Below are positions 9,464-51,470 of a DNA stretch of 64,000 nt, one piece after another. Origin of the DNA: Escherichia phage vB_EcoM-Ro121c4YLVW; sequence record NC_052654.1; one strand, written 5' to 3'. The translations under genes and the position numbers were made by a program. Positions within the stretch are counted from its first letter, which is position 1. Each line of letters begins with the position of its first letter. The notes beneath the pieces were generated by a model. The model was not told the DNA's origin and searched no databases. It saw only the letters and a program-made list of their open reading frames with translations.

Positions 9464-9473
9464 GGAGGAAGGA

Positions 9474-34084: not shown

Positions 34085-34089
34085 GACAA

Positions 34090-37023: not shown

Positions 37024-37040
37024 GGTGTTTCCTTCCAGTG

Positions 37041-37100
37041 GTGAGCGGCACCATTGCCGCCCTACAAAACACATCTTACACTATCCGGCACATTGTGCAA
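37041..37100 (-). promoter_or_regulatory. array promoter unit (TTGCAC-N16-TAAGAT, TAGGGCGG, hairpin GCGGCAATGGTGCCGC)
   Basis: Read on minus strand upstream of 36820-37023. Confidence 0.55.
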
Positions 37101-37106
37101 GCTATT

Positions 37107-37298
37107 TTAAATCTTATCGCCAATATAATCTGATCTGTTCTTCTCTGTCATGCGCTTTAATAATTCTTGCATATTGCTTATAGCTTGCAAGGTGTCTTCT
37201 TCCAGACTTGAATCAACATAATCAGGATCATTCTTCACCTTGCTATAGTTGTGATAGCGTAACGCTGCTAATACCTTTCTAACTTGTTCCACGTTCAT
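37107..37298 (-). CDS. hypothetical protein
   Basis: ORF track 63 aa. Confidence 0.4.
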   Translation of the reverse strand: MNVEQVRKVLAALRYHNYSKVKNDPDYVDSSLEEDTLQAISNMQELLKRMTEKNRSDYIGDKI

Positions 37299-37307
37299 AA
37301 TGTACCC

Positions 37308-37442
37308 TTAAAATAGTGTGCCGATGGAAGATAGCAGGTCACTAACAACTAAAACCAGATCTACTATCACATATCTAATCAGGAAGGGGATAAGCGCCAG
37401 CGTCGCTACTATGATCCCCATTGTGATGATCACCTTTCTCAT
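37308..37442 (-). CDS. 44-aa hydrophobic membrane peptide
   Basis: ATG 3 nt after upstream stop; no clear SD. Confidence 0.3.
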   Translation of the reverse strand: MRKVIITMGIIVATLALIPFLIRYVIVDLVLVVSDLLSSIGTLF

Positions 37443-37444
37443 CG

Positions 37445-37729
37445 TTAGCGGCTTACGTAGGCTTTACCGTTTACGGTCATCGGTATGGCTTCAAGGTCTG
37501 GATCTTCCTTAAGGTCGCGTGCAAGCTCACCGCAGCGGATACCCTCGAATCCGTGATATTCTGTTACACCGTCGTTAAATGTTTTAGCGGCAAGGCATAG
37601 GCGATAATTAACGCCGATCCGGTTTATTGCGTTGATATCGGTTAGCGTGATGGATTCTGGCAACTCATTAGCCAGTACAGGCGCGTTAATACCAACAACC
37701 AGGGCAACTACTGCGATCATCTTTTTCAT
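37445..37729 (-). CDS. secreted small protein (signal peptide)
   Basis: MKKMIAVVALVVGINAPVLA-NE; RBS AGGAAGAGGA. Confidence 0.5.
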   Translation of the reverse strand: MKKMIAVVALVVGINAPVLANELPESITLTDINAINRIGVNYRLCLAAKTFNDGVTEYHGFEGIRCGELARDLKEDPDLEAIPMTVNGKAYVSR

Positions 37730-37783
37730 GTGTCTATCCTCTTCCTATTGCGTTTAATGGGGCGTTACCGCCCCGCTTATGGT

Positions 37784-38020
37784 TTATTGATTGATGTTAT
37801 GATGAAAGTTATTTTCTTCAATAGCTTTTAAAATAAAAGCCGTGATCGCTTTCGTGTCTACTTGTTCGAACGTATCAGAATAAGCCCAATAATAATCATC
37901 CCCTACTTTCGGCGGGTAAACCTGGACAAGGAGATCGCCACCTGGTTGATCTATAAGCTCAACATGCAAGCCGGATGATTCAGCGGTTTTAACGGCGTTT
38001 AATACTGTTGCAATACTCAT
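37784..38020 (-). CDS. hypothetical protein
   Basis: ORF track 78 aa. Confidence 0.45.
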   Translation of the reverse strand: MSIATVLNAVKTAESSGLHVELIDQPGGDLLVQVYPPKVGDDYYWAYSDTFEQVDTKAITAFILKAIEENNFHHNINQ

Positions 38021-38064
38021 AATCTTTCCCTTTCTGATGTGGGGCGTTGCCGCCCCTTTGTTGA

Positions 38065-38364
38065 TTAGATCGCTGTTTCCAGTAGTTCGGCTAACGTCTT
38101 ACCGCCTGATAGTTGGTCTAACGTTTGCTCTTCTGGCAAGAAATTAGCTGATATTAATCCGACTTGATTTCCTTTGTGCCAATTAGCTTGACGGATGATT
38201 CCATCCTTTAAAGATTTTACCGCCATTGTGCAACCGTCGCCAAATGATTCATTTTTATGATCCATTACTTCATAAGCGCCCAGCTTGCTGCTGTTAGGCA
38301 CCATTAATGCGAATACATCACCAACAACCAGTTTTTCTACGGTAACAATAGCGATAGTTTCCAT
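38065..38364 (-). CDS. hypothetical protein
   Basis: ORF track 99 aa; RBS GAGGAAAG. Confidence 0.45.
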   Translation of the reverse strand: METIAIVTVEKLVVGDVFALMVPNSSKLGAYEVMDHKNESFGDGCTMAVKSLKDGIIRQANWHKGNQVGLISANFLPEEQTLDQLSGGKTLAELLETAI

Positions 38365-38382
38365 TTTACTTTCCTCATTATC

Positions 38383-38439
38383 GGCGGCACCATTGCCGCC
38401 CTACGTGGTAAATATTAGCACACTGGCGATCTGTGTCAA
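38383..38439 (-). promoter_or_regulatory. array promoter unit (TTGACA-N16-TAATAT, GTAGGGCGG, hairpin)
   Basis: ggcggcaccattgccgccctacgtggtaaatatta...tgtcaa on + strand. Confidence 0.6.
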
Positions 38440-38445
38440 TACTTT

Positions 38446-38832
38446 TTATTCAATATAAATCAAATTATCTTCACCAATGTAAGCCGACACGTTCGGCATA
38501 AACTTAGCTGCATTGGTTAGGCGGTTCGCCGTGTTAGTGGTGTATATTTCAGGGCGATCCCAAAAGCCTACGCCGTGACTGTTACGGGTAAAATGTAAAT
38601 CATTCCCGATCTGGTTGGCTGTTGCGCCGTCGCTCATTGCCTCAGAGATAGCGGCATTATTGGCATCACAAAACGCCGCCACGTCACGTATGATCCGCTG
38701 ATGGGCTTGATCTGAAAATTCATAATCAGTCATGTCATCTATAAAATTACCTTCATGATCCCTTGCGGATTCAGCAAAAATAAAGGCTTCTTTATAACCG
38801 TTGATGATTTCAATAATGATTTCTGTTTTCAT
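38446..38832 (-). CDS. hypothetical protein
   Basis: ORF track 128 aa. Confidence 0.45.
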   Translation of the reverse strand: MKTEIIIEIINGYKEAFIFAESARDHEGNFIDDMTDYEFSDQAHQRIIRDVAAFCDANNAAISEAMSDGATANQIGNDLHFTRNSHGVGFWDRPEIYTTNTANRLTNAAKFMPNVSAYIGEDNLIYIE

Positions 38833-39053
38833 GCTGTACGCTCGACAATAATAATGGTTTGCGGTATCTCGTTTTCTACTACTAATAAGGCTTTTTTCTG
38901 CGTGATAGATATTTTAACACGTTGTAAAGTAGCGGTAAAATCTTTCATTTCATTATGCGCGGATTTAGTGCAATGCCAGATCTCAGGCTTACCTATTTGC
39001 AAGCCGCGTAAAAATTCTGTTTTACCTGTCTTATTCGTGATCATTTGATTCAC
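38829..39053 (-). CDS. hypothetical protein
   Basis: ORF track 74 aa. Confidence 0.4.
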   Translation of the reverse strand: MNQMITNKTGKTEFLRGLQIGKPEIWHCTKSAHNEMKDFTATLQRVKISITQKKALLVVENEIPQTIIIVERTA

Positions 39054-39054
39054 C

Positions 39055-39159
39055 TTAACCGATACCGTGGGAAGATAGGATCATATTAGCCATAGTTGCA
39101 ACCACTCCAACCGATAACGCCAGGCCCACTATTACAACCGTGAAAATTTTCTCTAACAT
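39055..39159 (-). CDS. 34-aa hydrophobic membrane peptide
   Basis: Own promoter/hairpin unit upstream, RBS GAGGG; below ORF-track cutoff. Confidence 0.4.
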   Translation of the reverse strand: MLEKIFTVVIVGLALSVGVVATMANMILSSHGIG

Positions 39160-39426
39160 GATTCTACCCTCATTAATGGGCGTTGCCTTATTGCCCCGCC
39201 CTACGAAATACATTCTATCAGATAACAAATTATCGTCAAGATTTATTTTTTACTTCCCAAACGGAAAATTCGCTGCCTGTTGGGATCATCTTTTTAATCT
39301 TGTTTGCTGCCGCTACCAGGTCAACGGCTTGCACTGTAATAATATAACCAATTGTCGAGGCTGTTGCGTTGAAAGTTTTCATTATATTACCCTTTAATAC
39401 AGGCGGGATTAATCCCGCCTTGTTGA

Positions 39427-39597
39427 TTACTCTTCATCGTCGCCGTTATAGTATTCAATGCCATTTTCATCGGTTACGGTGATGTTAACGCCACCGATAG
39501 CAACACGATCACGGGCAAACGTCATGGCTTCATTTAAATCTTCAGACCAAAAAATATTGTGACCTTTGCGCGATACATAAAACATAGTCGGGATCAT
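39427..39597 (-). CDS. hypothetical small protein
   Basis: Start at ATG after AGAAGAGAAA; upstream part of track ORF is leader hairpin. Confidence 0.45.
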   Translation of the reverse strand: MIPTMFYVSRKGHNIFWSEDLNEAMTFARDRVAIGGVNITVTDENGIEYYNGDDEE

Positions 39598-39618
39598 GAT
39601 TTGTTTCTCTTCTGTTGT

Positions 39619-39681
39619 GAGCGGTGGACCATTCCGCCGCCCTATGTGGTAAACTTTACTACGTTGTTTGCGTGCTGTCAA
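39619..39681 (-). promoter_or_regulatory. array promoter unit (TTGACA-N17-TAAAGT, ATAGGGCGG, hairpin GGCGGAATGGTCCACCGC)
   Basis: Hairpin stem differs from other copies but stays self-complementary. Confidence 0.6.
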
Positions 39682-39682
39682 A

Positions 39683-39967
39683 TTATTTTTTAATGTTTTG
39701 CCCTACAAAATTAATCATTTCCTTAAGCTGTCTCTCTGTCATGATCGTACCTGGTAACTCTTCTTTAATTTCTTCCGGTAAATAAATATTACCGCGCCAG
39801 GTTAACAAACAACCGTTTTGATCTTCGCAGATAGAATAGGAAAACATCCACTCGCAATCATTTTCAAGCTCCCAAAAACACAAAAAGTCTTCTTTCCCTA
39901 AGTTTTCAACGGTTAAACATAATCCGCGACGTGCTGCATAATTAGTTAGGCTTTTTGTGATTTTCAT
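39683..39967 (-). CDS. hypothetical protein
   Basis: Start at internal ATG (MKITKS...), 94 aa. Confidence 0.45.
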   Translation of the reverse strand: MKITKSLTNYAARRGLCLTVENLGKEDFLCFWELENDCEWMFSYSICEDQNGCLLTWRGNIYLPEEIKEELPGTIMTERQLKEMINFVGQNIKK

Positions 39968-39986
39968 GATTTTTCTCTCTTCTTGT

Positions 39987-40044
39987 GAGCGGCACCATTG
40001 CCGCCCTACAAGATACATATTACCAGACTAAGCCGACTTGTCAA
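39987..40044 (-). promoter_or_regulatory. array promoter unit
   Basis: gagcggcaccattgccgccctacaagatacatatta...tgtcaa. Confidence 0.6.
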
Positions 40045-40165
40045 ACTATTTTTTCTTTTTCTTTGCTTCCAACCGTCTAAGGTTACGGCTTGACTTATTG
40101 CGCAAGGCGCTTAGATCGTCGTACCCTTTCCATGCTTGCATATCTTTCGGATTCATGTTATCCCC

Positions 40166-40327
40166 TTACTTGTTAGCCGGATTATATGCCAGGACCGCGC
40201 CGCTTGCTTTCACGCTTTCCGCTTCATAGTTGCGCAGATCGTTTTCTGTAAGGTTGAGCGCGATCACTTCCTCGATCTCAACGTCAGCGGCAAGGGCGAT
40301 CTCTTTGATAATGTCTGCTGTTTTCAT
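40166..40327 (-). CDS. hypothetical small protein
   Basis: Start at ATG after AAGGTG; 53 aa. Confidence 0.4.
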   Translation of the reverse strand: MKTADIIKEIALAADVEIEEVIALNLTENDLRNYEAESVKASGAVLAYNPANK

Positions 40328-40337
40328 AGTATGCACC

Positions 40338-40457
40338 TTATAAGATGATTGATAAGATAGTGACAACGAAAGCGATTATACTGATGGCAAATGTTATCTT
40401 TTTACCTTCGGATACTGCCGGATTTTTTGCCGTGTATTCTACTATGTACTTGCTCAT
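40338..40457 (-). CDS. 39-aa membrane peptide (C-terminal TM helix)
   Basis: Promoter unit upstream, RBS GAGAGGA; below ORF-track cutoff. Confidence 0.4.
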   Translation of the reverse strand: MSKYIVEYTAKNPAVSEGKKITFAISIIAFVVTILSIIL

Positions 40458-40480
40458 CGTGTAATCCTCTCATTTGCCTT

Positions 40481-40540
40481 GGGAACTATTCCCGCCGCCC
40501 TATGAATTAAATATACACTATCTCAAAAAGATTGCAAGCC
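40481..40540 (-). promoter_or_regulatory. array promoter unit (hairpin variant GGGAATAGTTCCC)
   Basis: gggaactattcccgccgccctatgaatt...tgcaag. Confidence 0.55.
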
Positions 40541-40555
40541 TTTTTCTGAATTATT

Positions 40556-40840
40556 TTATGCAGTAAACAAACCATCATTTACAACGGCGGCGATGATCTC
40601 CCGTGCCATTGATTCAGGGAAAGGGGCGCTATAGTCCTGGCTTGTCTCGTCGGTGTCAGTGATACAATGATAAGCTAACGAGTAAAAGCCTTTACTAACT
40701 GTTTTCAGTGAGATGATGATCACTCGGTCAAGCTTATTGGTGAATGTTGCCGTTAATGTGTTACCCTCCTGCGTCATATTGGACAAGTAAGCGGCATTAT
40801 TAATCAGGGAAAACATTAGCACGGTGTTAGCTTTACTCAT
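40556..40840 (-). CDS. hypothetical protein
   Basis: Start at internal ATG after GAGGATG; 94 aa. Confidence 0.45.
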   Translation of the reverse strand: MSKANTVLMFSLINNAAYLSNMTQEGNTLTATFTNKLDRVIIISLKTVSKGFYSLAYHCITDTDETSQDYSAPFPESMAREIIAAVVNDGLFTA

Positions 40841-40856
40841 GATTGCATCCTCAAAG

Positions 40857-40916
40857 GGGCGCGGCACCATTGCCGCCCTACACGATAACTATAACACAAT
40901 ATAAAACAGGATCAAC
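40857..40916 (-). promoter_or_regulatory. array promoter unit
   Basis: gcgcggcaccattgccgccctacacgat...gatcaa. Confidence 0.55.
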
Positions 40917-41124
40917 CTTTATTTTTCCACGGTGTCAGTTTGTTAATCATTGGTGATAAATAGCGTTTACCAACGTAAAACAGTACGCCAACTGATGCAA
41001 CGGCGGCGATCTCATGTAAGGAGGAAGGTCGCGCGGTGTCATAGTAGGTACCAATAATAGCAATAGCGGCTACTGCGGCAATGTCTGTAATAATTTTTTC
41101 TTGTTTTGTTGTGATAGTGGTCAT
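40912..41124 (-). CDS. small membrane protein (two hydrophobic segments)
   Basis: ORF track 70 aa. Confidence 0.45.
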   Translation of the reverse strand: MTTITTKQEKIITDIAAVAAIAIIGTYYDTARPSSLHEIAAVASVGVLFYVGKRYLSPMINKLTPWKNKG

Positions 41125-41145
41125 AATGTTTTTCTCTTTTATGTG

Positions 41146-41203
41146 GTCGGGAACTATTCCCGCCCTACGTGATACATCTTATCATACTTGGTTATGCTGT
41201 CAA
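41146..41203 (-). promoter_or_regulatory. array promoter unit (TTGACA-N16-TAAGAT)
   Basis: ggtcgggaactattcccgccctacgtgatacatctta...tgtcaa. Confidence 0.6.
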
Positions 41204-41209
41204 CCGTTT

Positions 41210-41395
41210 TTAAAGATATTTTATGCTAATGACGTTTTCAGGTTTAACCTTGTTGTGATGTGCATCAACATAGATCAAACCATCGTCAGAAAAGCCCAGG
41301 ATCACGCCCTGCGCGATAAAACCGTACGCATCACGGTAACGCACGGCTATTTTTAATGTTGCGTTGTAGGCTGTTTTAAGCTCGTTTAAAGTCAT
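41210..41395 (-). CDS. hypothetical protein
   Basis: ORF track 61 aa. Confidence 0.4.
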   Translation of the reverse strand: MTLNELKTAYNATLKIAVRYRDAYGFIAQGVILGFSDDGLIYVDAHHNKVKPENVISIKYL

Positions 41396-41450
41396 TTTTG
41401 TTTATCCTCTACATGTAAAAAGAAAGGGCGCTTGATGCGCCCTTGTTATG

Positions 41451-41597
41451 TTAATCCTCTAAATCCATCCAATTATATTTGTCACTCTTCCCGCGCTTTG
41501 TTTTATTGCGCTTGTCGCCTTTGCGGATCACTTCCTCGTTCCAGGCCTTGCGGATCTTGGAAGATTGAATTTTTTCTGCGCGATTAGATGTATTCAT
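41451..41597 (-). CDS. 48-aa basic protein
   Basis: Promoter/hairpin variant upstream, RBS GAGGAAACAAA; below ORF-track cutoff. Confidence 0.4.
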   Translation of the reverse strand: MNTSNRAEKIQSSKIRKAWNEEVIRKGDKRNKTKRGKSDKYNWMDLED

Positions 41598-41676
41598 TTT
41601 GTTTCCTCTTCATATGAGCGGCACCATTGCCGCTATATTGTTAATTTAAACTGTTTTGTAAAATTGTCAAGGTTTA

Positions 41677-42030
41677 TCATTCATAAGAGCAAGCAAGGAT
41701 CACGCCTGCAATATAAAGCCAATAATTTTCCCTTTCTCGTTGGATTTTATCATCGCTGCTATTCTCTTTAATGTATCCCCAGGATGTTAACAGGCGATCA
41801 ATTTCCCAATATTCGAAAGCGATATTGATATCTGATGGCAAGCCTTGTAACCATGATGCAAGTGCTTTAACAATACTATAATTAAAACGTGATTGGTTAT
41901 CAGGGTACCAGTACTCGGAATTAAAACGGCGCATCAATTCCGCGATCTTCTCTTTTTCGGTTGTAATACCGTAATCATTAAAATCGATAGCGGCAAGGAT
42001 GTACTCTTTAATTGCATTTTGTGCTTTCAT
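41677..42030 (-). CDS. hypothetical protein
   Basis: ORF track 117 aa. Confidence 0.5.
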   Translation of the reverse strand: MKAQNAIKEYILAAIDFNDYGITTEKEKIAELMRRFNSEYWYPDNQSRFNYSIVKALASWLQGLPSDINIAFEYWEIDRLLTSWGYIKENSSDDKIQRERENYWLYIAGVILACSYE

Positions 42031-42047
42031 GGTCTTTCTCTCTTTTT

Positions 42048-42106
42048 GAGCGGGAACTATTCCCGCCCTACGTGTAACAGTTTACTAAAAATTAAATCGG
42101 TGTCAA
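42048..42106 (-). promoter_or_regulatory. array promoter unit
   Basis: gagcgggaactattcccgccctacgtgtaac...tgtcaa. Confidence 0.6.
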
Positions 42107-42109
42107 GCT

Positions 42110-42331
42110 TTATTTTGTTACTACCATTTGGTACCCTGCTTCAATGTTAGTAAATACTGTTATTCCGTCCTGGCGTTCACTCATTAGCATACAAGGCGCT
42201 AACATCCTTTCTACTGCCTTGCACTCATTGTAAACGGCGGTTATATCTCCTGCGGCCTTGTCTTCTGTGGTGAATGTATCGTTTACGTAAACTTGACCAG
42301 CAACAACGGCGACAATAGCGAAAGTGATCAT
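42110..42331 (-). CDS. small protein with N-terminal hydrophobic segment
   Basis: Start at ATG (MITFAIVAVVAG...). Confidence 0.4.
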   Translation of the reverse strand: MITFAIVAVVAGQVYVNDTFTTEDKAAGDITAVYNECKAVERMLAPCMLMSERQDGITVFTNIEAGYQMVVTK

Positions 42332-42410
42332 AATGTTTTTTCTCTTTATGTGTTTCGTTTCAATTAGTTGATAATACAGCAATTTGCAGATTAGTCTTTA
42401 GCAATTCATG

Positions 42411-42629
42411 CTATTTACTCACAACAATATCGAAAACAAATTTTTCTTTGTTGTCTAAGCTCACGTATCCGATTCGACCACGCAATCCGAGAGTAGTGCC
42501 GTATTCGTAACCATCAAGACCTTTAACCTTCCAATCCATGCCCATTAAAACCGCATTATATTTCTGACCAACTACAAAAGCGCCACCAGTTGATTCAATG
42601 CAAACAACTTTAATTTTACGGATTGCCAT
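42411..42629 (-). CDS. hypothetical protein
   Basis: ORF track 72 aa; promoter TTGACT-N17-TATAAT with palindrome flanking -10. Confidence 0.45.
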   Translation of the reverse strand: MAIRKIKVVCIESTGGAFVVGQKYNAVLMGMDWKVKGLDGYEYGTTLGLRGRIGYVSLDNKEKFVFDIVVSK

Positions 42630-42707
42630 TTTCTTTCTCTCTTTCTGGTGATTGGTTTCTCTTCTCTATAGCGCCCATTATAAGGCGCTATAACGAAAAG
42701 TCAACGA

Positions 42708-42875
42708 TTATTTTTTAAGGCTTAAAGTACCTAACTTGTCAGCATGACGTAGACCAGGGAAGATCCATTTTCCTGATTCATCTTTTACAGGGGCTTTAAG
42801 CGTAGCGCCCAGGTTGGCGGCGTTAACTTTACGTGCAACGTTGCGAGCGGCTTCACGGGTAGCGAAAGTGATCAT
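42708..42875 (-). CDS. 55-aa hypothetical protein
   Basis: Promoter unit upstream, RBS AGAGGAAAA; below ORF-track cutoff. Confidence 0.4.
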   Translation of the reverse strand: MITFATREAARNVARKVNAANLGATLKAPVKDESGKWIFPGLRHADKLGTLSLKK

Positions 42876-42966
42876 AATATTTTCCTCTTCTCTTTGTTAG
42901 GCGGTGGACCATTCCGCCGCCTTGATGTAATACAGTTTACTTTATTTTTGCAGTATTGCAAGCGTT

Positions 42967-43179
42967 TTATGAAATAATCGTCAAAGTAAAATTGTAATCA
43001 CCTGATTGGTACAATACTTTATCACCGAACGTTCCAACACGTTTAACATTGCAATATATACCCATAACACTTTTTACATCTTTGATATTCTTCACGCCTG
43101 TAATATCTTTATTAAAATGATCGTGATCAGAAAATAAAACTTGACTTGCATTTTTTAACAGTGTGCGGATATTAGCCAT
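42967..43179 (-). CDS. hypothetical protein
   Basis: ORF track 70 aa. Confidence 0.45.
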   Translation of the reverse strand: MANIRTLLKNASQVLFSDHDHFNKDITGVKNIKDVKSVMGIYCNVKRVGTFGDKVLYQSGDYNFTLTIIS

Positions 43180-43212
43180 CGTGATAATCTCTCTTCTGTT
43201 GTGAGCGGCACT

Positions 43213-43270
43213 ATTGCCGCCCTACGTAATACAGTTTACTCTTTTTCTTTCCCGTGTCAACAATCTTTTT
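43213..43270 (-). promoter_or_regulatory. array promoter unit
   Basis: gagcggcactattgccgccctacgtaatac...tgtcaa. Confidence 0.6.
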
Positions 43271-43497
43271 CAGATTAATTCATCCAGGCATAACAGGCGA
43301 TCAACGTTGAGATCGGTCAGGCTGATGGTTGGCACCTGGTAGGATTCGATGTACTCAACGCTTGCATATTCCCCAAAATTAGCAATAGCCCACTTATTCA
43401 AGATCTCACATACATCATTAATCTTTTTGTTTGTTACAACTGCAATAACCTGGGAAGTGCCAACGGTGCCGGATACGCGAACAATATTGATAGCCAT
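43270..43497 (-). CDS. hypothetical protein
   Basis: ORF track 75 aa. Confidence 0.45.
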   Translation of the reverse strand: MAINIVRVSGTVGTSQVIAVVTNKKINDVCEILNKWAIANFGEYASVEYIESYQVPTISLTDLNVDRLLCLDELI

Positions 43498-43519
43498 AAT
43501 CTTTAATCTCTCTGCTGTT

Positions 43520-43579
43520 GGCGGGAAACCACTTCCCGCCCTATGTGATACATCTTACACTAATTTTAAACGTTGTCAA
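43520..43579 (-). promoter_or_regulatory. array promoter unit (hairpin variant GGCGGGAAGTGGTTTCCCGCC)
   Basis: ggcgggaaaccacttcccgccctatgtgatacatctta...tgtcaa. Confidence 0.6.
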
Positions 43580-43588
43580 CTGTTTTTA

Positions 43589-43828
43589 TTACATTCCAAC
43601 CATCGCGGCGCGGATCGCTGTAGTGCTATACTTGAAACCGTCTGGAGTTTTATCTTGTCCAGTTTGTTCCAGGAATAACATCATATCACGGGCAGCATCA
43701 TTACGATTAGTATTAGCGGCGATAAATTCTTTCGCCAACCGATATAATGATTCGTCGTTATTAATCCAAAGGCTTACATTCCAGTGAGTTTTGTTTTTGT
43801 GACCGTTGTAAGTTTTAGTAATAGCCAT
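43589..43828 (-). CDS. hypothetical protein
   Basis: ORF track 79 aa. Confidence 0.45.
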   Translation of the reverse strand: MAITKTYNGHKNKTHWNVSLWINNDESLYRLAKEFIAANTNRNDAARDMMLFLEQTGQDKTPDGFKYSTTAIRAAMVGM

Positions 43829-43849
43829 GATGATAATCTCTCTTTGAAT

Positions 43850-43911
43850 GAGGCGGGAACTATTCCCGCTCTCTATGTAATACAGTTTACTCTTTTTATT
43901 CGTGCTGTCAA
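43850..43911 (-). promoter_or_regulatory. array promoter unit (degenerate TAGAGAGCGG)
   Basis: gaggcgggaactattcccgctctctatgtaatac...tgtcaa. Confidence 0.5.
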
Positions 43912-43917
43912 TGCTTT

Positions 43918-44283
43918 TTATAAATCTTTTTTACGTTTTACATCGCTTGCATGACTGTATACAGTGATCCCATTGTCACGGCAAAAACGGGAAAGATACG
44001 CGCCGCGTGAAAATTCCTTGCCCTCAAGGTTGATAACCTTGCTAAATTCTTCCAGGGCGACGGTATCAAAATGATCACCATAGCCATATTGAAACGGAAC
44101 GTTAACCACCTCGATCAGTTTACCGCCGATCTCAACGTCAACCATTAAAGAAAAATATGTGTTACCGTAGGACTGTTGAAACCAGCGACGGGCGCTAATA
44201 TGCACCGCCTCAATGCTGGATAATTCAATTTTAGCCGTGTTAGCCAGGGTAGCATAAGCGGAAACATTGATATTAATAGCCAT
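43918..44283 (-). CDS. hypothetical protein
   Basis: ORF track 121 aa. Confidence 0.5.
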   Translation of the reverse strand: MAININVSAYATLANTAKIELSSIEAVHISARRWFQQSYGNTYFSLMVDVEIGGKLIEVVNVPFQYGYGDHFDTVALEEFSKVINLEGKEFSRGAYLSRFCRDNGITVYSHASDVKRKKDL

Positions 44284-44380
44284 GGTGTCACTCTCTCTTT
44301 TTGGTTAGTGGGAAGTATTCCCGATAAAAGTTATTATGCTTATACTATCACTCATTGTCAATAGTATAAGACTAAAACTT

Positions 44381-44560
44381 TTAACGATAATCATTATAGG
44401 CTTTATTGACCTGGCGAATGTAACATTCGAAAGCAAGATCAATGTATTCGTATTCACGCACATAATCACCATAGGTCACTACATACATTTTTAAAGTTTC
44501 CTCATAAGCCAGGAGGATCGAATCTAAACCTATAATCTCAGTTTTTGCAATGATAGCCAT
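44381..44560 (-). CDS. 59-aa hypothetical protein
   Basis: Promoter unit upstream; below ORF-track cutoff. Confidence 0.4.
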   Translation of the reverse strand: MAIIAKTEIIGLDSILLAYEETLKMYVVTYGDYVREYEYIDLAFECYIRQVNKAYNDYR

Positions 44561-44580
44561 GATGTTAACCTTTTATTGTT

Positions 44581-44637
44581 GGCGGCACCATTGCCGCCCT
44601 ACGTGATAAACTATACCAGAAGTTTAAACAGTGTCAA
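44581..44637 (-). promoter_or_regulatory. array promoter unit
   Basis: ggcggcaccattgccgccctacgtgataaacta...tgtcaa. Confidence 0.6.
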
Positions 44638-44643
44638 CCGTTT

Positions 44644-45006
44644 TTATTCGTAAATTTTACCGCTTTCGGCCCATACCATAACGCGGCGCATACTATCCCA
44701 AGTGTTTTGATCCAGGTTTAAGCCGTGCAACTCTTCGGTACTTCCCAGACCAGGTACCGCTTTGTTGTAAGTCGCATATAAGCGCCCTTGATACTCATAC
44801 GCCAGAGTAAGATCCTTTTGAATCATCTTTTTAAGCATAGCATTAAGCATCATATTAGCGGCATGTTGATCACGTTTTAGCGGTAACATGTCAATAAGGG
44901 CGCGATAAGCTGAAACATGAATATCAACCGTTTCACGTGGTAAATTTTTCATATCATTGCGGAAAGATACCAGATTAAACATGATAGTATTGATTTGCTT
45001 GCTCAT
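44644..45006 (-). CDS. hypothetical protein
   Basis: ORF track 120 aa. Confidence 0.5.
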   Translation of the reverse strand: MSKQINTIMFNLVSFRNDMKNLPRETVDIHVSAYRALIDMLPLKRDQHAANMMLNAMLKKMIQKDLTLAYEYQGRLYATYNKAVPGLGSTEELHGLNLDQNTWDSMRRVMVWAESGKIYE

Positions 45007-45027
45007 TGTGTTACCCTTTTTTGTTTT

Positions 45028-45088
45028 GGCTGGGAAGTATTCCGCCGCCCTATGTGATACATCTTATCAGATTAAAAAACGTTGTCAA
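45028..45088 (-). promoter_or_regulatory. array promoter unit
   Basis: ggctgggaagtattccgccgccctatgtgatacatctta...tgtcaa. Confidence 0.6.
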
Positions 45089-45096
45089 GAATATTT

Positions 45097-45192
45097 TTAG
45101 AAAATAATAGCCGCTACTACAATCCAAAATGGAACGGCTAGAATGATAGCGTTAATCGTTCCAACCGTCAAGCTATTTTCTTTATTAATCAT
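45097..45192 (-). CDS. 31-aa hydrophobic membrane peptide
   Basis: Promoter unit upstream; below ORF-track cutoff. Confidence 0.35.
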   Translation of the reverse strand: MINKENSLTVGTINAIILAVPFWIVVAAIIF

Positions 45193-45219
45193 TGTAAGCC
45201 TCTTGCATAATTTCACTAT

Positions 45220-45278
45220 GAGCGGCACCATTGCCGCCCTACGTGGTAAATATTATGCCAGTGGCGGCGATATGTCAA
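45220..45278 (-). promoter_or_regulatory. array promoter unit
   Basis: gagcggcaccattgccgccctacgtggtaaatatta...tgtcaa. Confidence 0.6.
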
Positions 45279-45841
45279 AGACTATTTTCAAAGTTTTCTA
45301 GTGCGATCCTTTTTTCTTCCTCTGTCGGCTGATAATCAGGAAAAGCATCAACACACAACAACGGCGGGATCTCTTCGTACTCTTCCTCTTCCGTTGTCTC
45401 CTCGTCTTCCTCCTGGGCTATGGCTGCAATTTTGGCTAATTTTCTTTCAGCTTGAATCAATTTACCATCAAGTACGTTTTTTGCCATGTTGTAAGCGGTC
45501 CAGGTGATGCGCTTACTTTCCAGGGCCTGATCGAGCGCCGCTATCTTGCTGGGGTATTCATCCAGGACACGAAAAGCCGGATCAACTTTGTACAAAGGAT
45601 TATCTTTCGCGCCGTCGCTCGCATCTTCCGCACTGGATAAATCAGCGTTACCATTTGCCAGCCAGCCAGGGCGCACATAACGCGCTTTTACGTTGCCGTT
45701 ACTACGTGCTAATCTGTTACCTATTTGCTCACCACTATATCCCGTGGATTCATCGATAAGATGATCGGGAATGATGCGCGGATCATCTGCTTCATGTTTT
45801 ACCCAAGACTGGATCACATATTCGCGGCCCATATTAACCAC
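45275..45841 (-). CDS. hypothetical protein with acidic C-terminal region
   Basis: ORF track 188 aa. Confidence 0.5.
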   Translation of the reverse strand: MVNMGREYVIQSWVKHEADDPRIIPDHLIDESTGYSGEQIGNRLARSNGNVKARYVRPGWLANGNADLSSAEDASDGAKDNPLYKVDPAFRVLDEYPSKIAALDQALESKRITWTAYNMAKNVLDGKLIQAERKLAKIAAIAQEEDEETTEEEEYEEIPPLLCVDAFPDYQPTEEEKRIALENFENSL

Positions 45842-46091
45842 CTTTTTTCAACAATTGGCATACTTTAAAAAGACTTGCTGAATCCTTGCAAGGGTAGAAA
45901 GATGTACGATAATCACGTACGCCAACCTTGCGGATCTCGATGTTCTCGCATGTTGTTTGATCAAAGATATTTATTTCATCACGCCCCCTTATATAAACAT
46001 AGTGGGGATGTATTAACGCATATTTTGCTAATCTGTAAAAAGCGTTATCTTTGAACGCGATCACGTGACCTTTTAATTTGATGTAAAACAT
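45834..46091 (-). CDS. hypothetical protein
   Basis: ORF track 85 aa; promoter unit at 46109-46164. Confidence 0.45.
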   Translation of the reverse strand: MFYIKLKGHVIAFKDNAFYRLAKYALIHPHYVYIRGRDEINIFDQTTCENIEIRKVGVRDYRTSFYPCKDSASLFKVCQLLKKGG

Positions 46092-46167
46092 TCTACCACC
46101 TTACAAATAGCGGGAACTATTCCCGCTTTATGTAACATATTAACAAATTATTCGTTAATGTCAAGCC

Positions 46168-46440
46168 TTAAAGCAAAAACGCTACATCTTGCGCTTTTAG
46201 TGTAGTATCAACCATTTTCGGGCTTTTATAATCAACAAAGCGCGCGGTTTTTTCAATAGCGAAACCGAGATAATCTTGCTTGTTGAAATTACATTCTTTC
46301 TTAAATGTTTCCCGTGCAATAGTGATCGCTGCGTCCAGGGATAAACGCCCGTCAATATTGATATTAGCGAAAGATCCGCCACCGCTCATAGGTTTACCAG
46401 TGGTGCCAGCTACGATCATTGTTGCGCTATATGATGCCAT
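46168..46440 (-). CDS. hypothetical protein
   Basis: ORF track 90 aa. Confidence 0.45.
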   Translation of the reverse strand: MASYSATMIVAGTTGKPMSGGGSFANINIDGRLSLDAAITIARETFKKECNFNKQDYLGFAIEKTARFVDYKSPKMVDTTLKAQDVAFLL

Positions 46441-46464
46441 GATGATAATCTCTCTTCTGTTGTG

Positions 46465-46525
46465 AGCGGTGGACCATTCCGCCGCCCTATGTGATACATC
46501 TTATCAGGTTGTTGTTTGTTGTCAA
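46465..46525 (-). promoter_or_regulatory. array promoter unit
   Basis: gagcggtggaccattccgccgccctatgtgatacatctta...tgtcaa. Confidence 0.6.
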
Positions 46526-46531
46526 TACTTT

Positions 46532-46729
46532 TTATTCTATTCCTGCAATTTGATTAACGCGCTTGCATTTTGTAGCGTGCTGGTCTTCTGTAATGACTCC
46601 CATTTCTAACAGGGAATCAATGAAAGATAAAACCGTTTCATGATCATCCTGGGGGTGACTGAACTCAGTAAAACCGTTTACCACTACGTTGATTTGTCCA
46701 GCTTTCGCCACAATGTGCAATGTTGCCAT
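46532..46729 (-). CDS. hypothetical small protein
   Basis: Start at internal ATG (MATLHIVAK...). Confidence 0.45.
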   Translation of the reverse strand: MATLHIVAKAGQINVVVNGFTEFSHPQDDHETVLSFIDSLLEMGVITEDQHATKCKRVNQIAGIE

Positions 46730-46748
46730 GATTTTAACTCCAAATAAT

Positions 46749-46807
46749 GAGCGGCACCATTGCCGCCCTACGTGGTAAATATTATGCCGCCACCTGGCGA
46801 ACGTCAA
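46749..46807 (-). promoter_or_regulatory. array promoter unit (last copy)
   Basis: gagcggcaccattgccgccctacgtggtaaatatta...cgtcaa. Confidence 0.6.
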
Positions 46808-46916
46808 TCACTTTTTCAATCTTTTTTATTTTCTTTTTGCTTGCTATATATAAAAGAAAGGGCTATCATCTTTCTACCGCGCCAACCAGGGCGCACATCA
46901 AAGAAAGGGCGATACC

Positions 46917-47120
46917 ATGACAACTACATTACACCTTATGCACTCATTGGGCTGGCAAGGCGGCACGGTGCACCAGGTAGCAAGTGCAACGGGCTTAAAG
47001 GTTGAAACCGTTCTCAACCTGGGCGATCATAAGGTGGAAGAGATAGATCATTTTGATACGTTCGCAAATGGTTATCTATGGGCTTGCAGTGGCGGCGGGG
47101 CGATATGTATTTTTGGTTAG
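46917..47120 (+). CDS. hypothetical small protein (only + strand gene within the leftward block)
   Basis: ORF track 67 aa; weak RBS. Confidence 0.35.
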   Translation: MTTTLHLMHSLGWQGGTVHQVASATGLKVETVLNLGDHKVEEIDHFDTFANGYLWACSGGGAICIFG

Positions 47121-47154
47121 GTGTCCTATCCTGGCAAGAAAACAAAAAATAATC

Positions 47155-47183
47155 TTGACAAGCCCAGGGATCGGGCTTATACT
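47155..47183 (+). promoter_or_regulatory. sigma70-type promoter with no ORF downstream
   Basis: TTGACA-N17-TATACT; palindromic spacer. Confidence 0.5.
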
Positions 47184-47189
47184 GTTTTA

Positions 47190-47290
47190 CATACAGAAGA
47201 GGAAGCGCCACCCCACGGCGTAAAGGCGGGGCTAACATACCAGGGGGCACTGGTTGGAAGGTTGATCGCCGGTAGGCTGGGCGCTATATA
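47190..47290 (+). ncRNA. candidate small non-coding RNA
   Basis: GC-rich segment with local hairpins just downstream of the promoter, ends near an A/T-rich stretch; no ORF. Confidence 0.25.
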
Positions 47291-47537
47291 TTTGTAAAGA
47301 AATGTAAAGATAAAATAATCGCTTGCTTTCCTGGCTGGATCTGTTATTCTTATTACATGGCGAGGGGACACGGGAGCGCGAGACAAACACCACCCCTGCG
47401 CGTCATTCTCTAAATGAGAATGATTATCATTTACCTTATCAAATAAGAATCAATCTCATTTATAAACCTAAATGCGAATCATTATCATTTGCATTTCCAT
47501 ATGAGAACTCTTCTCATTCCCATCTGCATAAATTTTT

Positions 47538-47740
47538 GTAAACTTTAAATTTTGCTTTTGTACTTTCATTTTTGTAAAAGCAAAAAAACTTTAAATACTG
47601 TGGGCGCGCAAAATTTTTAAAATTTTCCTTGACTTTTGAGTTTTGTTTTGTATCTGACATTTTAAGATAATTTTCCTAAACTTTAAATTTTGGTTTTCAA
47701 CTTTCACTTTTGTAAATTCTTAAAAAGTTTAAATAATTTG
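47538..47740. repeat. two about 63-bp direct repeats rich in A-tracts plus short TTTGAGATAA repeats (iteron-like)
   Basis: Copies at about 47538-47600 and 47677-47740. Confidence 0.55.
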
Positions 47741-47958
47741 AGGGATTTTTGAGATAATGGATAGTGGGAATTTGAGATAACCTTTAATCTTATTGGCAGA
47801 CCTTCAGGAAGCCACTTAGATCGAATCCTAGCAATGCAAACTGAAAAAGACAAGTGTTTGTATAGGACAAAATAATAGGCTCTCTACGGTGCTGTAGGAG
47901 CCTTATTTCTGTGCTACAAAGTGACACCTTTGTTCTAAAAATGAAAAAAGTTAAAATA

Positions 47959-48501
47959 TCACAAATATCGTCTTTGCGGTATTTTGTCTGGGAAAAGTAT
48001 TTCGATCAGTTTATTATGATATTTGCCTAAAAGATTCTGCCCTTTCCAGGTGGCAGGGTTTAGCACCCCTGGTTCATACATCCCCATTCCAATTCCGTAA
48101 ACCTTATCGTAGGGGCTTGCTTCAACAAACGTTTTGTATTGGTAAAGGTGTAAGTCTGCATACAAATCTGGATTCTGTACATATTTCAAGCATAAACCTC
48201 GCATAACAATACGCTCACGGTTCTCTTCCCACATATCATTATTAAAACCAGATACCGCTCGACCCATACGTTTGTAGTATGCTTGTTTCCTCTCGTTGTC
48301 ACGTATAGTCGAGTGATCAAGGATAGCTGCTGCAATCGCATGATCCTTGAACAGCAAAGCCTTACGCCACATCATATATTGCTCAACACAACAGAAAGTC
48401 TCATTGTAACCTGGTTCAGTTTCTGTAAAGGGTGCAATATACCAATTACTAAACACATCTTTATGTGAAAAGAAGAATACATATTCATCAGTTATTCTCA
48501 T
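47959..48501 (-). CDS. NADAR (YbiA-like) domain protein
   Basis: FFFS...FSNW, CVEQYMMWRKA, KRMGR, FVEASPYDKVYGIG match the NADAR signature. Confidence 0.7.
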   Translation of the reverse strand: MRITDEYVFFFSHKDVFSNWYIAPFTETEPGYNETFCCVEQYMMWRKALLFKDHAIAAAILDHSTIRDNERKQAYYKRMGRAVSGFNNDMWEENRERIVMRGLCLKYVQNPDLYADLHLYQYKTFVEASPYDKVYGIGMGMYEPGVLNPATWKGQNLLGKYHNKLIEILFPDKIPQRRYL

Positions 48502-48689: not shown

Positions 48690-49055
48690 TTAATCCATCC
48701 ACCAGTAGCCATAAACTGCGTCTGCGTCGATGAGTTTGTGTTTGTTGTTCCGCATGTAGTCTAAGATAAGTAGACGTTTATTGTATCTGGAGAGATTATG
48801 ACCCTCTTTTCCGCCATAGTCAAAATATTTTGCAAGATCTTTACACTCAAACAAAATCAGTTCGGGAGTTTCTTCACACTGGTCTGTCTGGTACACTTGA
48901 CGAATGATCATGTATACATCGTCGTCTTCCGCTAAATGCTCTACTGGTCCACATCCAGCAGGAACAAATTCATAGTCCCATCTGATCAGATGTTTCTCTA
49001 CTGCTTCAAAGAAATCCATCCTTTCGTTGCGCATAATTTGAACGTCAACTAACAT
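48690..49055 (-). CDS. hypothetical protein
   Basis: ORF track 121 aa. Confidence 0.45.
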   Translation of the reverse strand: MLVDVQIMRNERMDFFEAVEKHLIRWDYEFVPAGCGPVEHLAEDDDVYMIIRQVYQTDQCEETPELILFECKDLAKYFDYGGKEGHNLSRYNKRLLILDYMRNNKHKLIDADAVYGYWWMD

Positions 49056-50251
49056 GTTTCCTCCTGTAATGTTCCACCATAAAGTTTATAAATGTTTTGT
49101 ATTGAGGCCATGCAAGATAACTCTACTGTTTCTGTGTAGCCATCTGGCATAGAATATTTGCTCACTGCTTCCGTGTGAAGGACACGCTTACAACGCTTTT
49201 CTGCATCTTTGCATTGCTTCACAGTAGGGAAGTGCCACACTTGGACCTGTTTCATAGTAAACACATTACGACTATTTTGTTTTTTGATACGGCGATCACT
49301 ATTATTGGCAATTCCAAATTTCAAAGCACAGAGAATACCTTGTTCATCATGAATGTGGTTAATGTAACATTGTTGTTGTGTCTGGTTAGCACATTGCGGA
49401 CAACCAGTGCCATGATTTAACAAACCACTGGCACGTCCTATTTGTACCCCATGTTTCTTACATCCATATTTAAACTTACCTAATCTTACAGACGGTTTCC
49501 CGATCCAACCTACCCAGATATACCCTTTCCTTTCTACTGCCTTTTTTACCCTATAGGTAATCTGTGCTTCTGTGTAATGACAGTTAGTTGCACAACGGCA
49601 AGGAATCTTCCCTTGTTTAAGGTCATTCCCTGCGACATAAAACTTACCATCACACACCCCAGCTTGCACATACTCATCGTGAGAGCAGGCAGGACACTCT
49701 ACACACCATAAAGAATCGCGGCCTCGTTTTTTATCTGTTTTAGTGAAGATTGTACCCTCTTTAAACTTTCCTGTATTAATGAAGTCTTGTATGTGCTGAT
49801 CGTCTGGAAGTATTTTAGAATTCCTAGATCTTTTGTTACCGCATTTAGGACAACCACTACCACCCTTAAGATTATGAAATGTTAATGTTCGCCATTCCCC
49901 GTGCTCAGGACAAAGGTTGATCATCTTTGTATGTACACCTATAAACTCTCCATTAATGCCTAAAATCTTGATTCCCTTAGCTTCAGCAATAGGCTTACAT
50001 TCCGAAAGGTAATAATCTAGGTTTTTACTGTTGTCTTGTCTTGCTTTCTCATTTTTGCACCTAGGGCAACCAGACTTACCACGTTTAAAATTGGCAAATG
50101 TGGATGTTCTCCACTCCCCATGATTAGGGCAGAAGTTGATCATCTTCGTGTGCACACCTTTAAATGGCTCTACAATCCCTATAATCTCATATCCTTTAGC
50201 TTCCGCTATTGGTTTACATTCTCCTATATACTGTTCTAACGTCTTCGCCAT
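49049..50251 (-). CDS. multi-zinc-ribbon protein with internal tandem duplication; possible nuclease-like C-terminal domain
   Basis: Two about 80-aa repeats ending CPxHGEWRT..F.N.K.G.SGCPxC; further CxxC pairs; C-terminal FGIANNSDRRIKKQNS region. Confidence 0.5.
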   Translation of the reverse strand: MAKTLEQYIGECKPIAEAKGYEIIGIVEPFKGVHTKMINFCPNHGEWRTSTFANFKRGKSGCPRCKNEKARQDNSKNLDYYLSECKPIAEAKGIKILGINGEFIGVHTKMINLCPEHGEWRTLTFHNLKGGSGCPKCGNKRSRNSKILPDDQHIQDFINTGKFKEGTIFTKTDKKRGRDSLWCVECPACSHDEYVQAGVCDGKFYVAGNDLKQGKIPCRCATNCHYTEAQITYRVKKAVERKGYIWVGWIGKPSVRLGKFKYGCKKHGVQIGRASGLLNHGTGCPQCANQTQQQCYINHIHDEQGILCALKFGIANNSDRRIKKQNSRNVFTMKQVQVWHFPTVKQCKDAEKRCKRVLHTEAVSKYSMPDGYTETVELSCMASIQNIYKLYGGTLQEETC

Positions 50252-50330: not shown

Positions 50331-51470
50331 TCAGAACACGCTACCCAGTGTAGTGGAACGTTGTGTTACAGGCTCCAGCACCACTCGCAGAGTGTTTCCT
50401 GGTGTAGTGCTCATCACCAGAATCTTACCACCTTCAATCAGATCACAAGTTAGACCATCAGCAGTTGCACACAGATCAATATGTGGATCGCCATCTTCAT
50501 CCAGGATAACATAACTGTTGGTTTCCATTGCTTCCACTTCATCATCTTTCAAACTTTGCAGATAGATGTTCAGGGAACAAGCACCCGACAAAAACTTAGT
50601 AGGGGTGAAGTCGTGCCAGTTATTGATCCAATTCACCTTCAGGGTTTTGCCATTAGCTACGATAGAAGCCACATTCCATTTAGCATCGTTGCCTAAAGAA
50701 ATACCCATCATTTCCAGACATTCTTTAAAAGTCATTTTTGGATAGAAATTCAATTCTTCTACAATACCTTGAATAACATCAAAAGACAACTCTGTACTAA
50801 CATCCCATAAACGTTGGAAGTTATCTACGTGCTTTTTATTTACCAAGTTCTTATCCAAGTAATCTAACATAGTTTCACTAGACAGTTTATCGTAATTGAA
50901 ACTGTAATAGATACGACTAGGACGGTTTACAAAATATTCCGAGATATAACCACTATTTTTAGTGAGGATGTAAAGTTTATTCCCACTTCCTGTTCCATCC
51001 AACAAGGTCAACAGTGCTTCCTGATCTTCTTTCTTAGCGTACACTTTATCAAATTCGTCAAATAAAACAACAGCACGATCTGTAATTTTACTCATAAATT
51101 CTAAGAAGCCAGCATCTGTGTAAGGCTGTGTAACCAAAATGGTTGGAATACCTAAACCTTCTGTGGACATTAGAGACATGCTAATCAGTTTAGCTAACAT
51201 CGTCTTACCACTGCCCTTTGTCCCTGTCAGTAACACCCCAGTATTTTTACCTTCTTTACTACGACGAGCAAATGTTTTAATAACATGTGCGGCGCGGTCT
51301 TTAGTTTCCCCATAAAGAGTGTTCGGAAGAGAGAAACTTTCGCCACGCACTAAAGAGTAGTTACCGTGCGGATCGCAGTTGACAACCCAAACTCCAGCAG
51401 GAAGTTTATTAGCTTCAACGCCATATTCCTTATTTACAACCGCTACATCTCCAAAAATAGTGTATTTCAT
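50331..51470 (-). CDS. AAA+ ATPase
   Basis: Walker A GTKGSGKT, Walker B VVLFDEFD; 379 aa. Confidence 0.65.
   Translation of the reverse strand: MKYTIFGDVAVVNKEYGVEANKLPAGVWVVNCDPHGNYSLVRGESFSLPNTLYGETKDRAAHVIKTFARRSKEGKNTGVLLTGTKGSGKTMLAKLISMSLMSTEGLGIPTILVTQPYTDAGFLEFMSKITDRAVVLFDEFDKVYAKKEDQEALLTLLDGTGSGNKLYILTKNSGYISEYFVNRPSRIYYSFNYDKLSSETMLDYLDKNLVNKKHVDNFQRLWDVSTELSFDVIQGIVEELNFYPKMTFKECLEMMGISLGNDAKWNVASIVANGKTLKVNWINNWHDFTPTKFLSGACSLNIYLQSLKDDEVEAMETNSYVILDEDGDPHIDLCATADGLTCDLIEGGKILVMSTTPGNTLRVVLEPVTQRSTTLGSVF

Follow-up and report, generated by a model that had tools for sequence, protein, structure and literature searches.

Here, we analyze palindromes resembling Fur boxes in DNA of Escherichia phage vB_EcoM-Ro121c4YLVW (NC_052654.1), using a stretch of 64,000 nucleotides (nt), hereafter the window, which is numbered from its first letter. 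In bacteria, Fur boxes are well-known operators of iron genes; phages, to our knowledge, are known to have them only before cargo genes of temperate members. The source is a Phapecoctavirus, i.e., one of the phAPEC8-like Escherichia coli myoviruses with genomes of ~150 kb, and the region from 46500 to 48500 is 97 to 98.5% identical to many Phapecoctavirus genomes, including those of ESCO13, ukendt, and vB_Ec-G1. The palindromes lie in two non-coding flanks on either side of an array of ~36 short minus-strand genes to which no function has been assigned (35640 to 46807; based on the annotation of ESCO13 and a list of open reading frames [ORFs]). The left flank (34085 to 35640; 1.56 kb, based on the ORF list and without a coding sequence in the annotation of the relative Schickermooser) separates a minus-strand gene at 33740 to 34084 from the last gene of the array at 35640 to 36059, which is also on the minus strand. 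The right flank (47121 to 47958; 838 bp) is a convergent intergenic region between an ORF at 46917 to 47120 on the plus strand and a gene at 47959 to 48501 on the minus strand. Both flanks are AT-rich, with a content of guanine plus cytosine (GC) of 36%, and repetitive.

Each flank contains four boxes. In the left flank, L1 (34426 to 34444; AATGAGAATAATTATCATT; 28.3 bits) and L2 (34605 to 34623; TATGAGAATGATTATTATT; 23.7 bits) are identical in Schickermooser; the weaker L3 (35126 to 35144; TTTGCTAATAGTTATTATT; 18.0 bits) differs by 1 nt from its Schickermooser copy, which scores 20.3 bits; and L4 (35373 to 35391; GATGATAATGGTTATCATT; 21.0 bits) is kept at 19 of 19 positions in Schickermooser, while the adjacent bases diverge. 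In the right flank, R1 (47413 to 47431; AATGAGAATGATTATCATT; 28.2 bits), R2 (47442 to 47460; AATAAGAATCAATCTCATT; 20.4 bits), R3 (47471 to 47489; AATGCGAATCATTATCATT; 25.0 bits), and R4 (47500 to 47518; TATGAGAACTCTTCTCATT; 18.6 bits) form a regular array, the dyads of which, at 47422, 47451, 47480, and 47509, are spaced by exactly 29 bp. R4 contains the perfect palindrome ATGAGAA-N3-TTCTCAT (ATGAGAACTCTTCTCAT). The first-pass annotation of this DNA had quoted four AT-rich 17-mers as variants of one palindrome. All four are present and the palindromes are real; their positions were off by 1 to 10 nt, the true ones being 47416 (given as 47406), 47474 (47475), 34608 (34604), and 34429 (34426). 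L3, L4, R2, and R4 are additions to that set. The sites have the architecture of a 9-1-9 inverted repeat, AATGAGAAT-N-ATTmTCATT, and the best-supported dyad is the N of AATGAGAAT-N-ATTATCATT, in the 9-1-9 register of Chen et al. 2007. This dyad lies 3 nt to the left of the AATGATnATCATT core on which the palindromes had been centered at first; both registers are normal in Fur clusters.

We scored the window with a symmetric 19-bp Fur matrix built from 17 experimentally supported E. coli K-12 sites (positions from Chen et al. 2007, PMC2189734, Tables 3 and 4; sequences from NC_000913.3), from which the mntH and sitA operators were left out as test sites. The consensus of the matrix is AATGATAATAATTATCATT; the training sites score 8.1 to 27.8 bits (leave-one-out), and the held-out mntH and sitA operators score 24.6 and 27.6 bits, respectively. 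At 18.0 to 28.3 bits, the phage sites are in the range of the strongest chromosomal operators, and the reading of the palindromes as Fur boxes, for which scoring with a Fur matrix had been proposed as a test, is borne out. The eight best matches in the window all fall in 34085 to 35640 or 47121 to 47958, in agreement with the original observation that the palindromes are restricted to the two non-coding regions, and the next match in the window reaches 16.7 bits. Nine matches to the palindrome pattern with at most 3 mismatches are present in the window, as compared with 0.59 expected, and none of 100 shuffles reached nine. Similarly, seven sites of at least 18 bits fall within 2.4 kb of non-coding DNA, while 0.235 are expected per 64 kb by first-order Markov simulation. 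In ESCO13, a close relative, the other 88 kb of the genome gave no match of at least 15 bits.

A 68-nt composite of two Fur-type units, used as a BLAST query against 5,426 complete E. coli genomes, matched only the mntH and sitA loci. Both loci are intergenic, directly upstream of mntH or sitA, and adjoin the MntR boxes of these genes. Over 18 nt (47412 to 47429), the window is identical to the E. coli mntH Fur operator, a site listed with the work of Patzer and Hantke on repression by Fur and MntR (Chen et al. 2007, PMC2189734). The phage sites also resemble chromosomal Fur operators more generally (mntH, sitA, gpmA, yoeA, ryhB, and fecI, among others; the "M9" model of Chen et al. 2007) in being 19-bp palindromes with secondary sites at +6, and their matrix scores equal or exceed those of the chromosomal operators. 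The secondary sites accompany the strongest boxes, at 34432 on L1 (16.6 bits), 47419 on R1 (15.3 bits), and 47477 on R3 (15.0 bits), and overlapping sites offset by 6 (or 3) bp are a mark of real Fur clusters (Chen et al. 2007, PMC2189734). Unlike the chromosomal operators, the phage sites are not located 5' of an iron or manganese gene, include a four-site array with a spacing of 29 bp, lie in part in a terminal repeat, and do not occlude a clear promoter. Judged from the match to the matrix and to host operators, it is very likely that Fur binds these sites.

The position of the boxes relative to the DNA ends can be deduced from Schickermooser (MK373788.1). In this record, the first 329 nt equal the last 329 nt exactly and map to 34697 and 34369 of the window, and the terminal repeat of this phage was given as 328 bp (Korf 2019, PMC6563267). 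By homology, the physical virion ends of the phage analyzed here would be formed by a direct terminal repeat of 329 bp at 34369 to 34697. Within this repeat, L1 is 57 nt from one end and 253 nt from the other, and L2 is 236 and 74 nt from them, respectively; therefore, each virion end would carry both boxes. L3 and L4 lie in the same untranslated end region outside the repeat. The right array is 13.0 to 13.1 kb, or ~8.7% of the genome, from the inferred end, and the short genes between the flanks make up the terminal ~12 kb of the virion DNA with these ends; all of them are transcribed toward the DNA end. Upstream of most of them, there are near-consensus sigma70-type promoters on the minus strand (~22 in total; TTGACA-16/17-TAnnnT with at least 10 of 12 matches), because of which we take the array as a presumed early module for the host RNA polymerase. 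By homology, the left flank would thus contain the DNA end, while the right flank would be the inner border of the early-gene block. It had also been suggested that the two flanks are related repeats bounding a module; the bounding fits this placement, while the idea of related repeats was rejected, as the flanks have nothing in common beyond the Fur units. Several bidirectional GC-rich terminators are present within the small-gene array, and the record of ESCO13 is opened arbitrarily inside it, not at the physical ends.

Comparison with relatives shows that the boxes are conserved above the DNA around them and are maintained while their arrangement changes. The four boxes of the left flank are identical to Schickermooser at 75 of 76 nt versus 91.3% in the rest of the flank. 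The Justusliebigvirus phages phi92 and cardinal have a rearranged array of five sites, which score up to 28.2 bits and are spaced by 17, 24, 29, and 23 bp. In tuntematon, sites 1 and 2 are inverted as a block (1493 to 1540 of its retrieved segment versus 47413 to 47460 of the window), presumably by recombination between palindromic units, while anhysbys has three sites and lacks the fourth. This turnover with maintenance of the boxes points to selection on the sites themselves. The annotated "repeat_region" features of tuntematon and anhysbys were considered as terminal repeats and rejected, as they cover only the tandem array.

Similar arrays are present in T5-like phages. A sensitive BLAST search with 47380 to 47540 matched 586 phage records, and the matches in T5-like phages fall in untranslated DNA close to where the long terminal repeat ends on its inner side. 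For the matrix scans, DT57C was covered up to 50 kb and T5 up to 12 kb from the start of the record, and lambda over its final 63 nt. DT57C carries strong sites (27.1 bits at 6969 and up to 28.2 bits between 7326 and 7581), and no comparable sites were found in its first 50 kb outside of the array at 6969 to 7581; DT57C 7324 to 7350 is identical over 27 nt to 47469 to 47495 of the window, i.e., over R3. My1 has six sites of 19.9 to 24.5 bits within 150 bp and, in the parts scanned, strong sites are confined to that region. In T5, the RefSeq feature "injection stop signal" (9140 to 10149; NC_005859) encloses the array at 9552 to 9715, the sites of which score 22.7, 28.2, 22.7, and 18.1 bits and are accompanied by half-site repeats of 23 bp; the major nick at 9748/9749 is 33 nt from the array. 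The first-step shear point of T5 is at ~9618, and the T5 repeats have been described as palindromes and direct repeats, with DnaA proposed as the host factor and Fur unmentioned (Davison, bioRxiv 10.1101/866236). In both the phage analyzed here and Repeat Region 3 of T5-like phages, the Fur-type arrays lie in a long convergent non-coding region that is removed from the end by ~8 to 9% of the genome and adjoins, on the inner side, a terminal block of early genes (presumed ones in the case of the phage analyzed here) with transcription toward the end. The gene layout is also alike, with terminal early genes, a few plus-strand genes, the non-coding region, and then minus-strand genes. The distance from the array to the end, as inferred for the phage analyzed here, is ~8.7%, and in T5 it is 7.8 to 8.0%; the likeness is thus one of geometry. 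The two systems differ in the length of the terminal repeat (329 bp here versus 8 to 13 kb in T5-like phages) and in the spacing of the arrays (29 bp here versus 23 or 35 bp in T5). We also observed that the octamer CCCTGCGC adjoins the Fur array in the window (47396 to 47403) and in T5 (9741 to 9749), perhaps by chance, and that phi92 has it too; in T5, it is the annotated major single-strand nick site (9748/9749).

Beyond T5-like phages, Fur boxes were found near the DNA ends or cos sites of further phages. The Vequintavirus phiWec189 has an exact 148-bp terminal repeat, the left edge of which coincides with the start of a box of 23.5 bits, while the right edge falls in the middle of a box of 25.8 bits; the record-end segments, 1 to 190 and 2855 to 3002 of the retrieved pieces, may be physical ends or an assembly overlap. 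Among prophage genes, nohA and nohB have been listed with strong Fur sites in their upstream regions (Chen et al. 2007, PMC2189734). In DLP12, a prophage of E. coli K-12, a Fur box of 23.5 bits is found to the left of the cosN sequence GGGCGGCGACCT, at a distance of 35 nt (retrieved segment 693 to 757). In lambda (J02459), the sequence GATGATAATCATTATCACT at 48450 to 48468 scores 17.7 bits and lies 34 to 52 nt from the right end (last 63 nt scored), which we take to be just upstream of the cosQ region. We know of no function of the Fur box in lambda or DLP12. The position of these boxes is reminiscent of IHF at lambda cos, where site I1 in cosB is bound by IHF and a role of IHF in packaging is established: in both cases, only tens of bases separate the site of an abundant host DNA-binding protein from a mature end, and L1 and L2 are in a parallel position. 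A packaging role is, in contrast, established for IHF only. Among the Fur boxes at cargo genes of temperate phages, that of stx1 is one example. The sitABCD genes on lambdoid coliphages are another, and here too a host Fur box is carried on phage DNA (PMC6969025); unlike the sites described here, this is a single operator at the promoter of an iron-related cargo gene, while the phage analyzed here is virulent and has no such gene next to the boxes.

Scanning IMG/VR with the exact consensus matched at least 120 loci. Among the matches listed, 43 of 120 have at least three sites of at least 18 bits, often phased by 23 to 43 bp, on contigs with a GC content of 0.21 to 0.53; one of these contigs has 12 sites, and another has a spacing of 29 bp. 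Also among the matches listed, the motif lies at most 300 nt from the contig end in 13 of 40 complete contigs, as compared with 3.7 expected (P ~4e-5).

We lean toward the view that the palindromes are genuine high-affinity sites for host Fur that function as a nucleoprotein element at DNA ends and boundaries rather than as a classical gene operator. This function is favored by the placement of the sites within terminal repeats, beside cos, between convergent genes, and inside the stop region of T5. In this model, DNA entering an iron-replete cell would be bound at the boxes by pre-existing Fe2+-Fur dimers, and the loaded boxes would cap the DNA end and the inner border of the early module with nucleoprotein. 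Such an element would act in cis via a host protein, as an anchor, a pause point, or a roadblock to DNA translocation and/or read-through transcription. That Fur binding specifically has such a boundary or anchor role is suggested by the equivalent arrays in the injection-stop region of T5, and we propose it tentatively. More speculatively, and with considerable doubt, Fur-box arrays might be a conserved, unrecognized cis-element of phage DNA ends or first-entering segments in several unrelated groups of enterobacterial phages, a reading that would take in T5 with its stop signal, Phapecoctavirus and Vequintavirus with their terminal repeats, lambda cos on its cosQ side, and many uncultured contigs.

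Several observations argue against an end or boundary function or limit how far it can be taken. All of the support for it is computational, and the terminal repeat was deduced from a relative with 92 to 98% identity, not measured in this phage. No fur mutant is known to block the growth of T5 or lambda; any role is therefore probably modulatory. None of the spacings (29, 23, and 35 bp) keeps the sites in helical phase, nor is it obvious by what means cytoplasmic Fur could stop the transfer of DNA. Repeats that break assemblies can also yield the enrichment at contig ends in IMG/VR. Moreover, two-step injection is known from T5 and not from phapecoctaviruses. With T5-like phages, nothing beyond the Fur units is alignable, and this similarity could reflect convergence rather than a shared element. 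The paired DnaA boxes of the T5 region (within the large inverted repeats IRD'-spacer-IRC') have no counterpart in either flank: TTWTNCACA is absent from both, and its six occurrences in the whole window are about the number expected by chance. Likewise, the direct repeats of GTGCAAATCCGAC that are found in the T5 region are absent from the window. Because the similarity is confined to the Fur units and these two kinds of T5 elements are missing, we do not call the regions homologous, and homology of the whole region with Repeat Region 3 of T5 was rejected; convergence on the same host protein is equally possible. Short blocks that look alike by eye, e.g., "gagataat...tttgagata" and TTGACTTTTGAG, were below significance in the comparison with T5.

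The right flank contains additional elements next to the array. A near-consensus sigma70-type promoter on the plus strand (TTGACA-17-TATACT; 47155 to 47183) is directed at the Fur array, and a second, weaker conserved promoter on the same strand (TTGCTT at 47323 to 47328 and TATTCT at 47345 to 47350) is also located 5' of it. Each promoter is followed by a GC-rich hairpin unit, and the units at 47203 to 47221 and 47385 to 47403 are direct repeats. The segment from 47121 to 47432 is ~92% identical in Justusliebigvirus even though the adjoining array is rearranged there, and a similar promoter and hairpin unit is present in the Vequintavirus phiWec189. The predicted RNAs of the two units fold modestly better than shuffled sequences (z = -2.1 and -2.65) and have no match in Rfam; we regard the promoter/hairpin units as candidate small RNAs. 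A hairpin on the plus strand, GTCATTCTC-TAAAT-GAGAATGAT (47402 to 47424), is formed by the left half of R1 and an inverted copy upstream of it, and looks like a terminator for transcripts arriving from the left. Immediately past the array, two AT-rich 72-nt direct repeats (47531 to 47602 and 47669 to 47740) are 82% identical, with a partial copy at 47620 to 47652; they could be iterons, promoters, or an unwinding element. Three similar copies of the 72-nt repeat are present in phi92 and cardinal (CTTTTCATTTT...AAAAACTTTAAATAA). Farther to the right, the minus strand encodes a 400-amino-acid endonuclease-like protein with repeated zinc-ribbon-like CxxC motifs (49049 to 50251; phrog_681, with a weaker match to HNH endonucleases) and a 379-amino-acid ATPase (50331 to 51470; phrog_2376). 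No Pfam domain was detected in the 10 largest products of the small-gene array, and searches for tRNAs and Rfam families in the window and both flanks gave nothing meaningful.

The promoters of the right flank bear on the most obvious alternative, namely that the boxes are classical iron-responsive operators at which Fe2+-Fur represses overlapping promoters or blocks rightward transcripts from 47155 to 47183 and 47323 to 47350, with iron tuning small RNAs or early transcripts. Control of promoters is the usual function of Fur boxes, and 83% of the Fur clusters in E. coli overlap sigma70 promoters (Chen et al. 2007, PMC2189734). In line with this, promoter-like hexamers overlap L1 (34409 to 34437), L4 (35361 to 35390; TAAACA-18-TATCAT on the plus strand), and R3 (47459 to 47488), the array is directly preceded by two conserved rightward promoters, each with a structured GC-rich unit, R1 forms part of the terminator-like hairpin, and the phage encodes iron-dependent ribonucleotide reductases. 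The overlapping hexamers are, however, weak (9 of 12 matches) and are partly a by-product of the resemblance of a Fur box to a -10 element, and the convergent right flank has no gene downstream of the array. The sole ORF behind a box, a hydrophobic 32-codon frame on the plus strand downstream of L4 (35414 to 35512) with a good Shine-Dalgarno sequence, is interrupted by a stop codon in Schickermooser and was rejected as a gene. Promoter control also leaves arrays of 4 to 12 sites and the sites in terminal repeats and near cos unexplained. Thus, the suggestion of the first-pass annotation that host iron status regulates a phage transcript is possible, and it is not the best fit to sites that lie partly in a terminal repeat and partly between convergent genes, the one ORF behind a site not being conserved; we consider operators of this kind rather unlikely. 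A further alternative assigns the boxes a function in trans, as a decoy: the hundreds of copies in replicated genomes would titrate Fur and de-repress host iron uptake for the iron enzymes of the phage or rewire the regulon. It is established that multicopy Fur boxes titrate Fur, which is the basis of the Fur titration assay; the sites match the best chromosomal operators in strength, and the class Ia and class III ribonucleotide reductases of the phage require iron. But a decoy could sit anywhere, and the strict placement at ends, at the border of the early module, and beside cos is not predicted by it. Moreover, T5 degrades host DNA within minutes (based on the annotation of A1), which would make de-repression of host genes pointless there, and with eight sites per genome versus what we take to be thousands of Fur molecules per cell, an effect would be limited to late infection. 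Accordingly, we find this explanation improbable.

It had also been considered that a different palindrome-binding protein is involved, and a phage-encoded one would make the likeness to Fur boxes a coincidence or mimicry. For most products of the early module, no function is known, and one of them could be an unnoticed DNA-binding protein; in addition, the phage consensus favors G at position 6 (AATGAGAAT), where the E. coli consensus has T. However, G at this position is also present in the validated fecI, oppA, fecA, and mntH sites, and one phage site matches a host operator without a difference over 18 nt. Phages of unrelated families share the motif (Demerecviridae, Stephanstirmvirinae, Vequintavirinae, and lambdoid phages), as do viral contigs across the GC range given above, and the terminal-repeat proteins of T5, including A1 and A2, have no homologue in this phage, as tblastn found no match to them in the phapecoctavirus genome. 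Pfam and PHROG scans of 18 neighboring and array proteins gave no DNA-binding annotation, although they cover only those 18 and are weak evidence. For these reasons (no homologue of the T5 proteins, no DNA-binding annotation, one motif across families and GC contents, and identity with host operators), the motif is explained most economically by a conserved host protein, and a phage-encoded binder is highly improbable. Lastly, the flanks are AT-rich and repetitive, as would suit functionless palindromes that arose by chance or as remnants of tandem duplication. Simulations with the composition of the flanks gave 0.024 matches of at least 18 bits in 2.4 kb versus the 7 observed, and the best simulated match scored 23.2 bits versus 28.3 bits observed. 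Together with conservation of the boxes above background and their maintenance through rearrangement in other genera, these numbers effectively refute chance.

In the searchable literature, which leaves older subscription papers outside, we found no paper linking Fur to T5-like, phAPEC8-like, or lambda cos DNA, and in the accessible literature, no host factor has been identified for the T5 injection stop signal, which was described decades ago. What would be new here are consensus-strength Fur boxes as phased arrays in the non-coding DNA of virulent phages, located at the DNA ends and at the border of the early block. If Fur binds these boxes, the part of a host metal sensor in DNA entry, end protection, early transcription boundaries, or packaging becomes testable. 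If the reading of Fur-box arrays as an element shared among several phage groups is true, Fe2+-Fur would be a host factor for DNA entry, for the holding or capping of ends, or for packaging, and a nucleoprotein array of Fur could turn out to be the host component long sought for the injection stop of T5. By the same token, phAPEC8-like and rV5-like phages would share with T5 a first-entering early segment that is delimited alike. Binding of Fur to the arrays would also mean that iron availability, which is limiting in the gut, could affect infection by phage groups in therapeutic use, e.g., the phAPEC8-, rV5-, phi92-, and T5-like phages.

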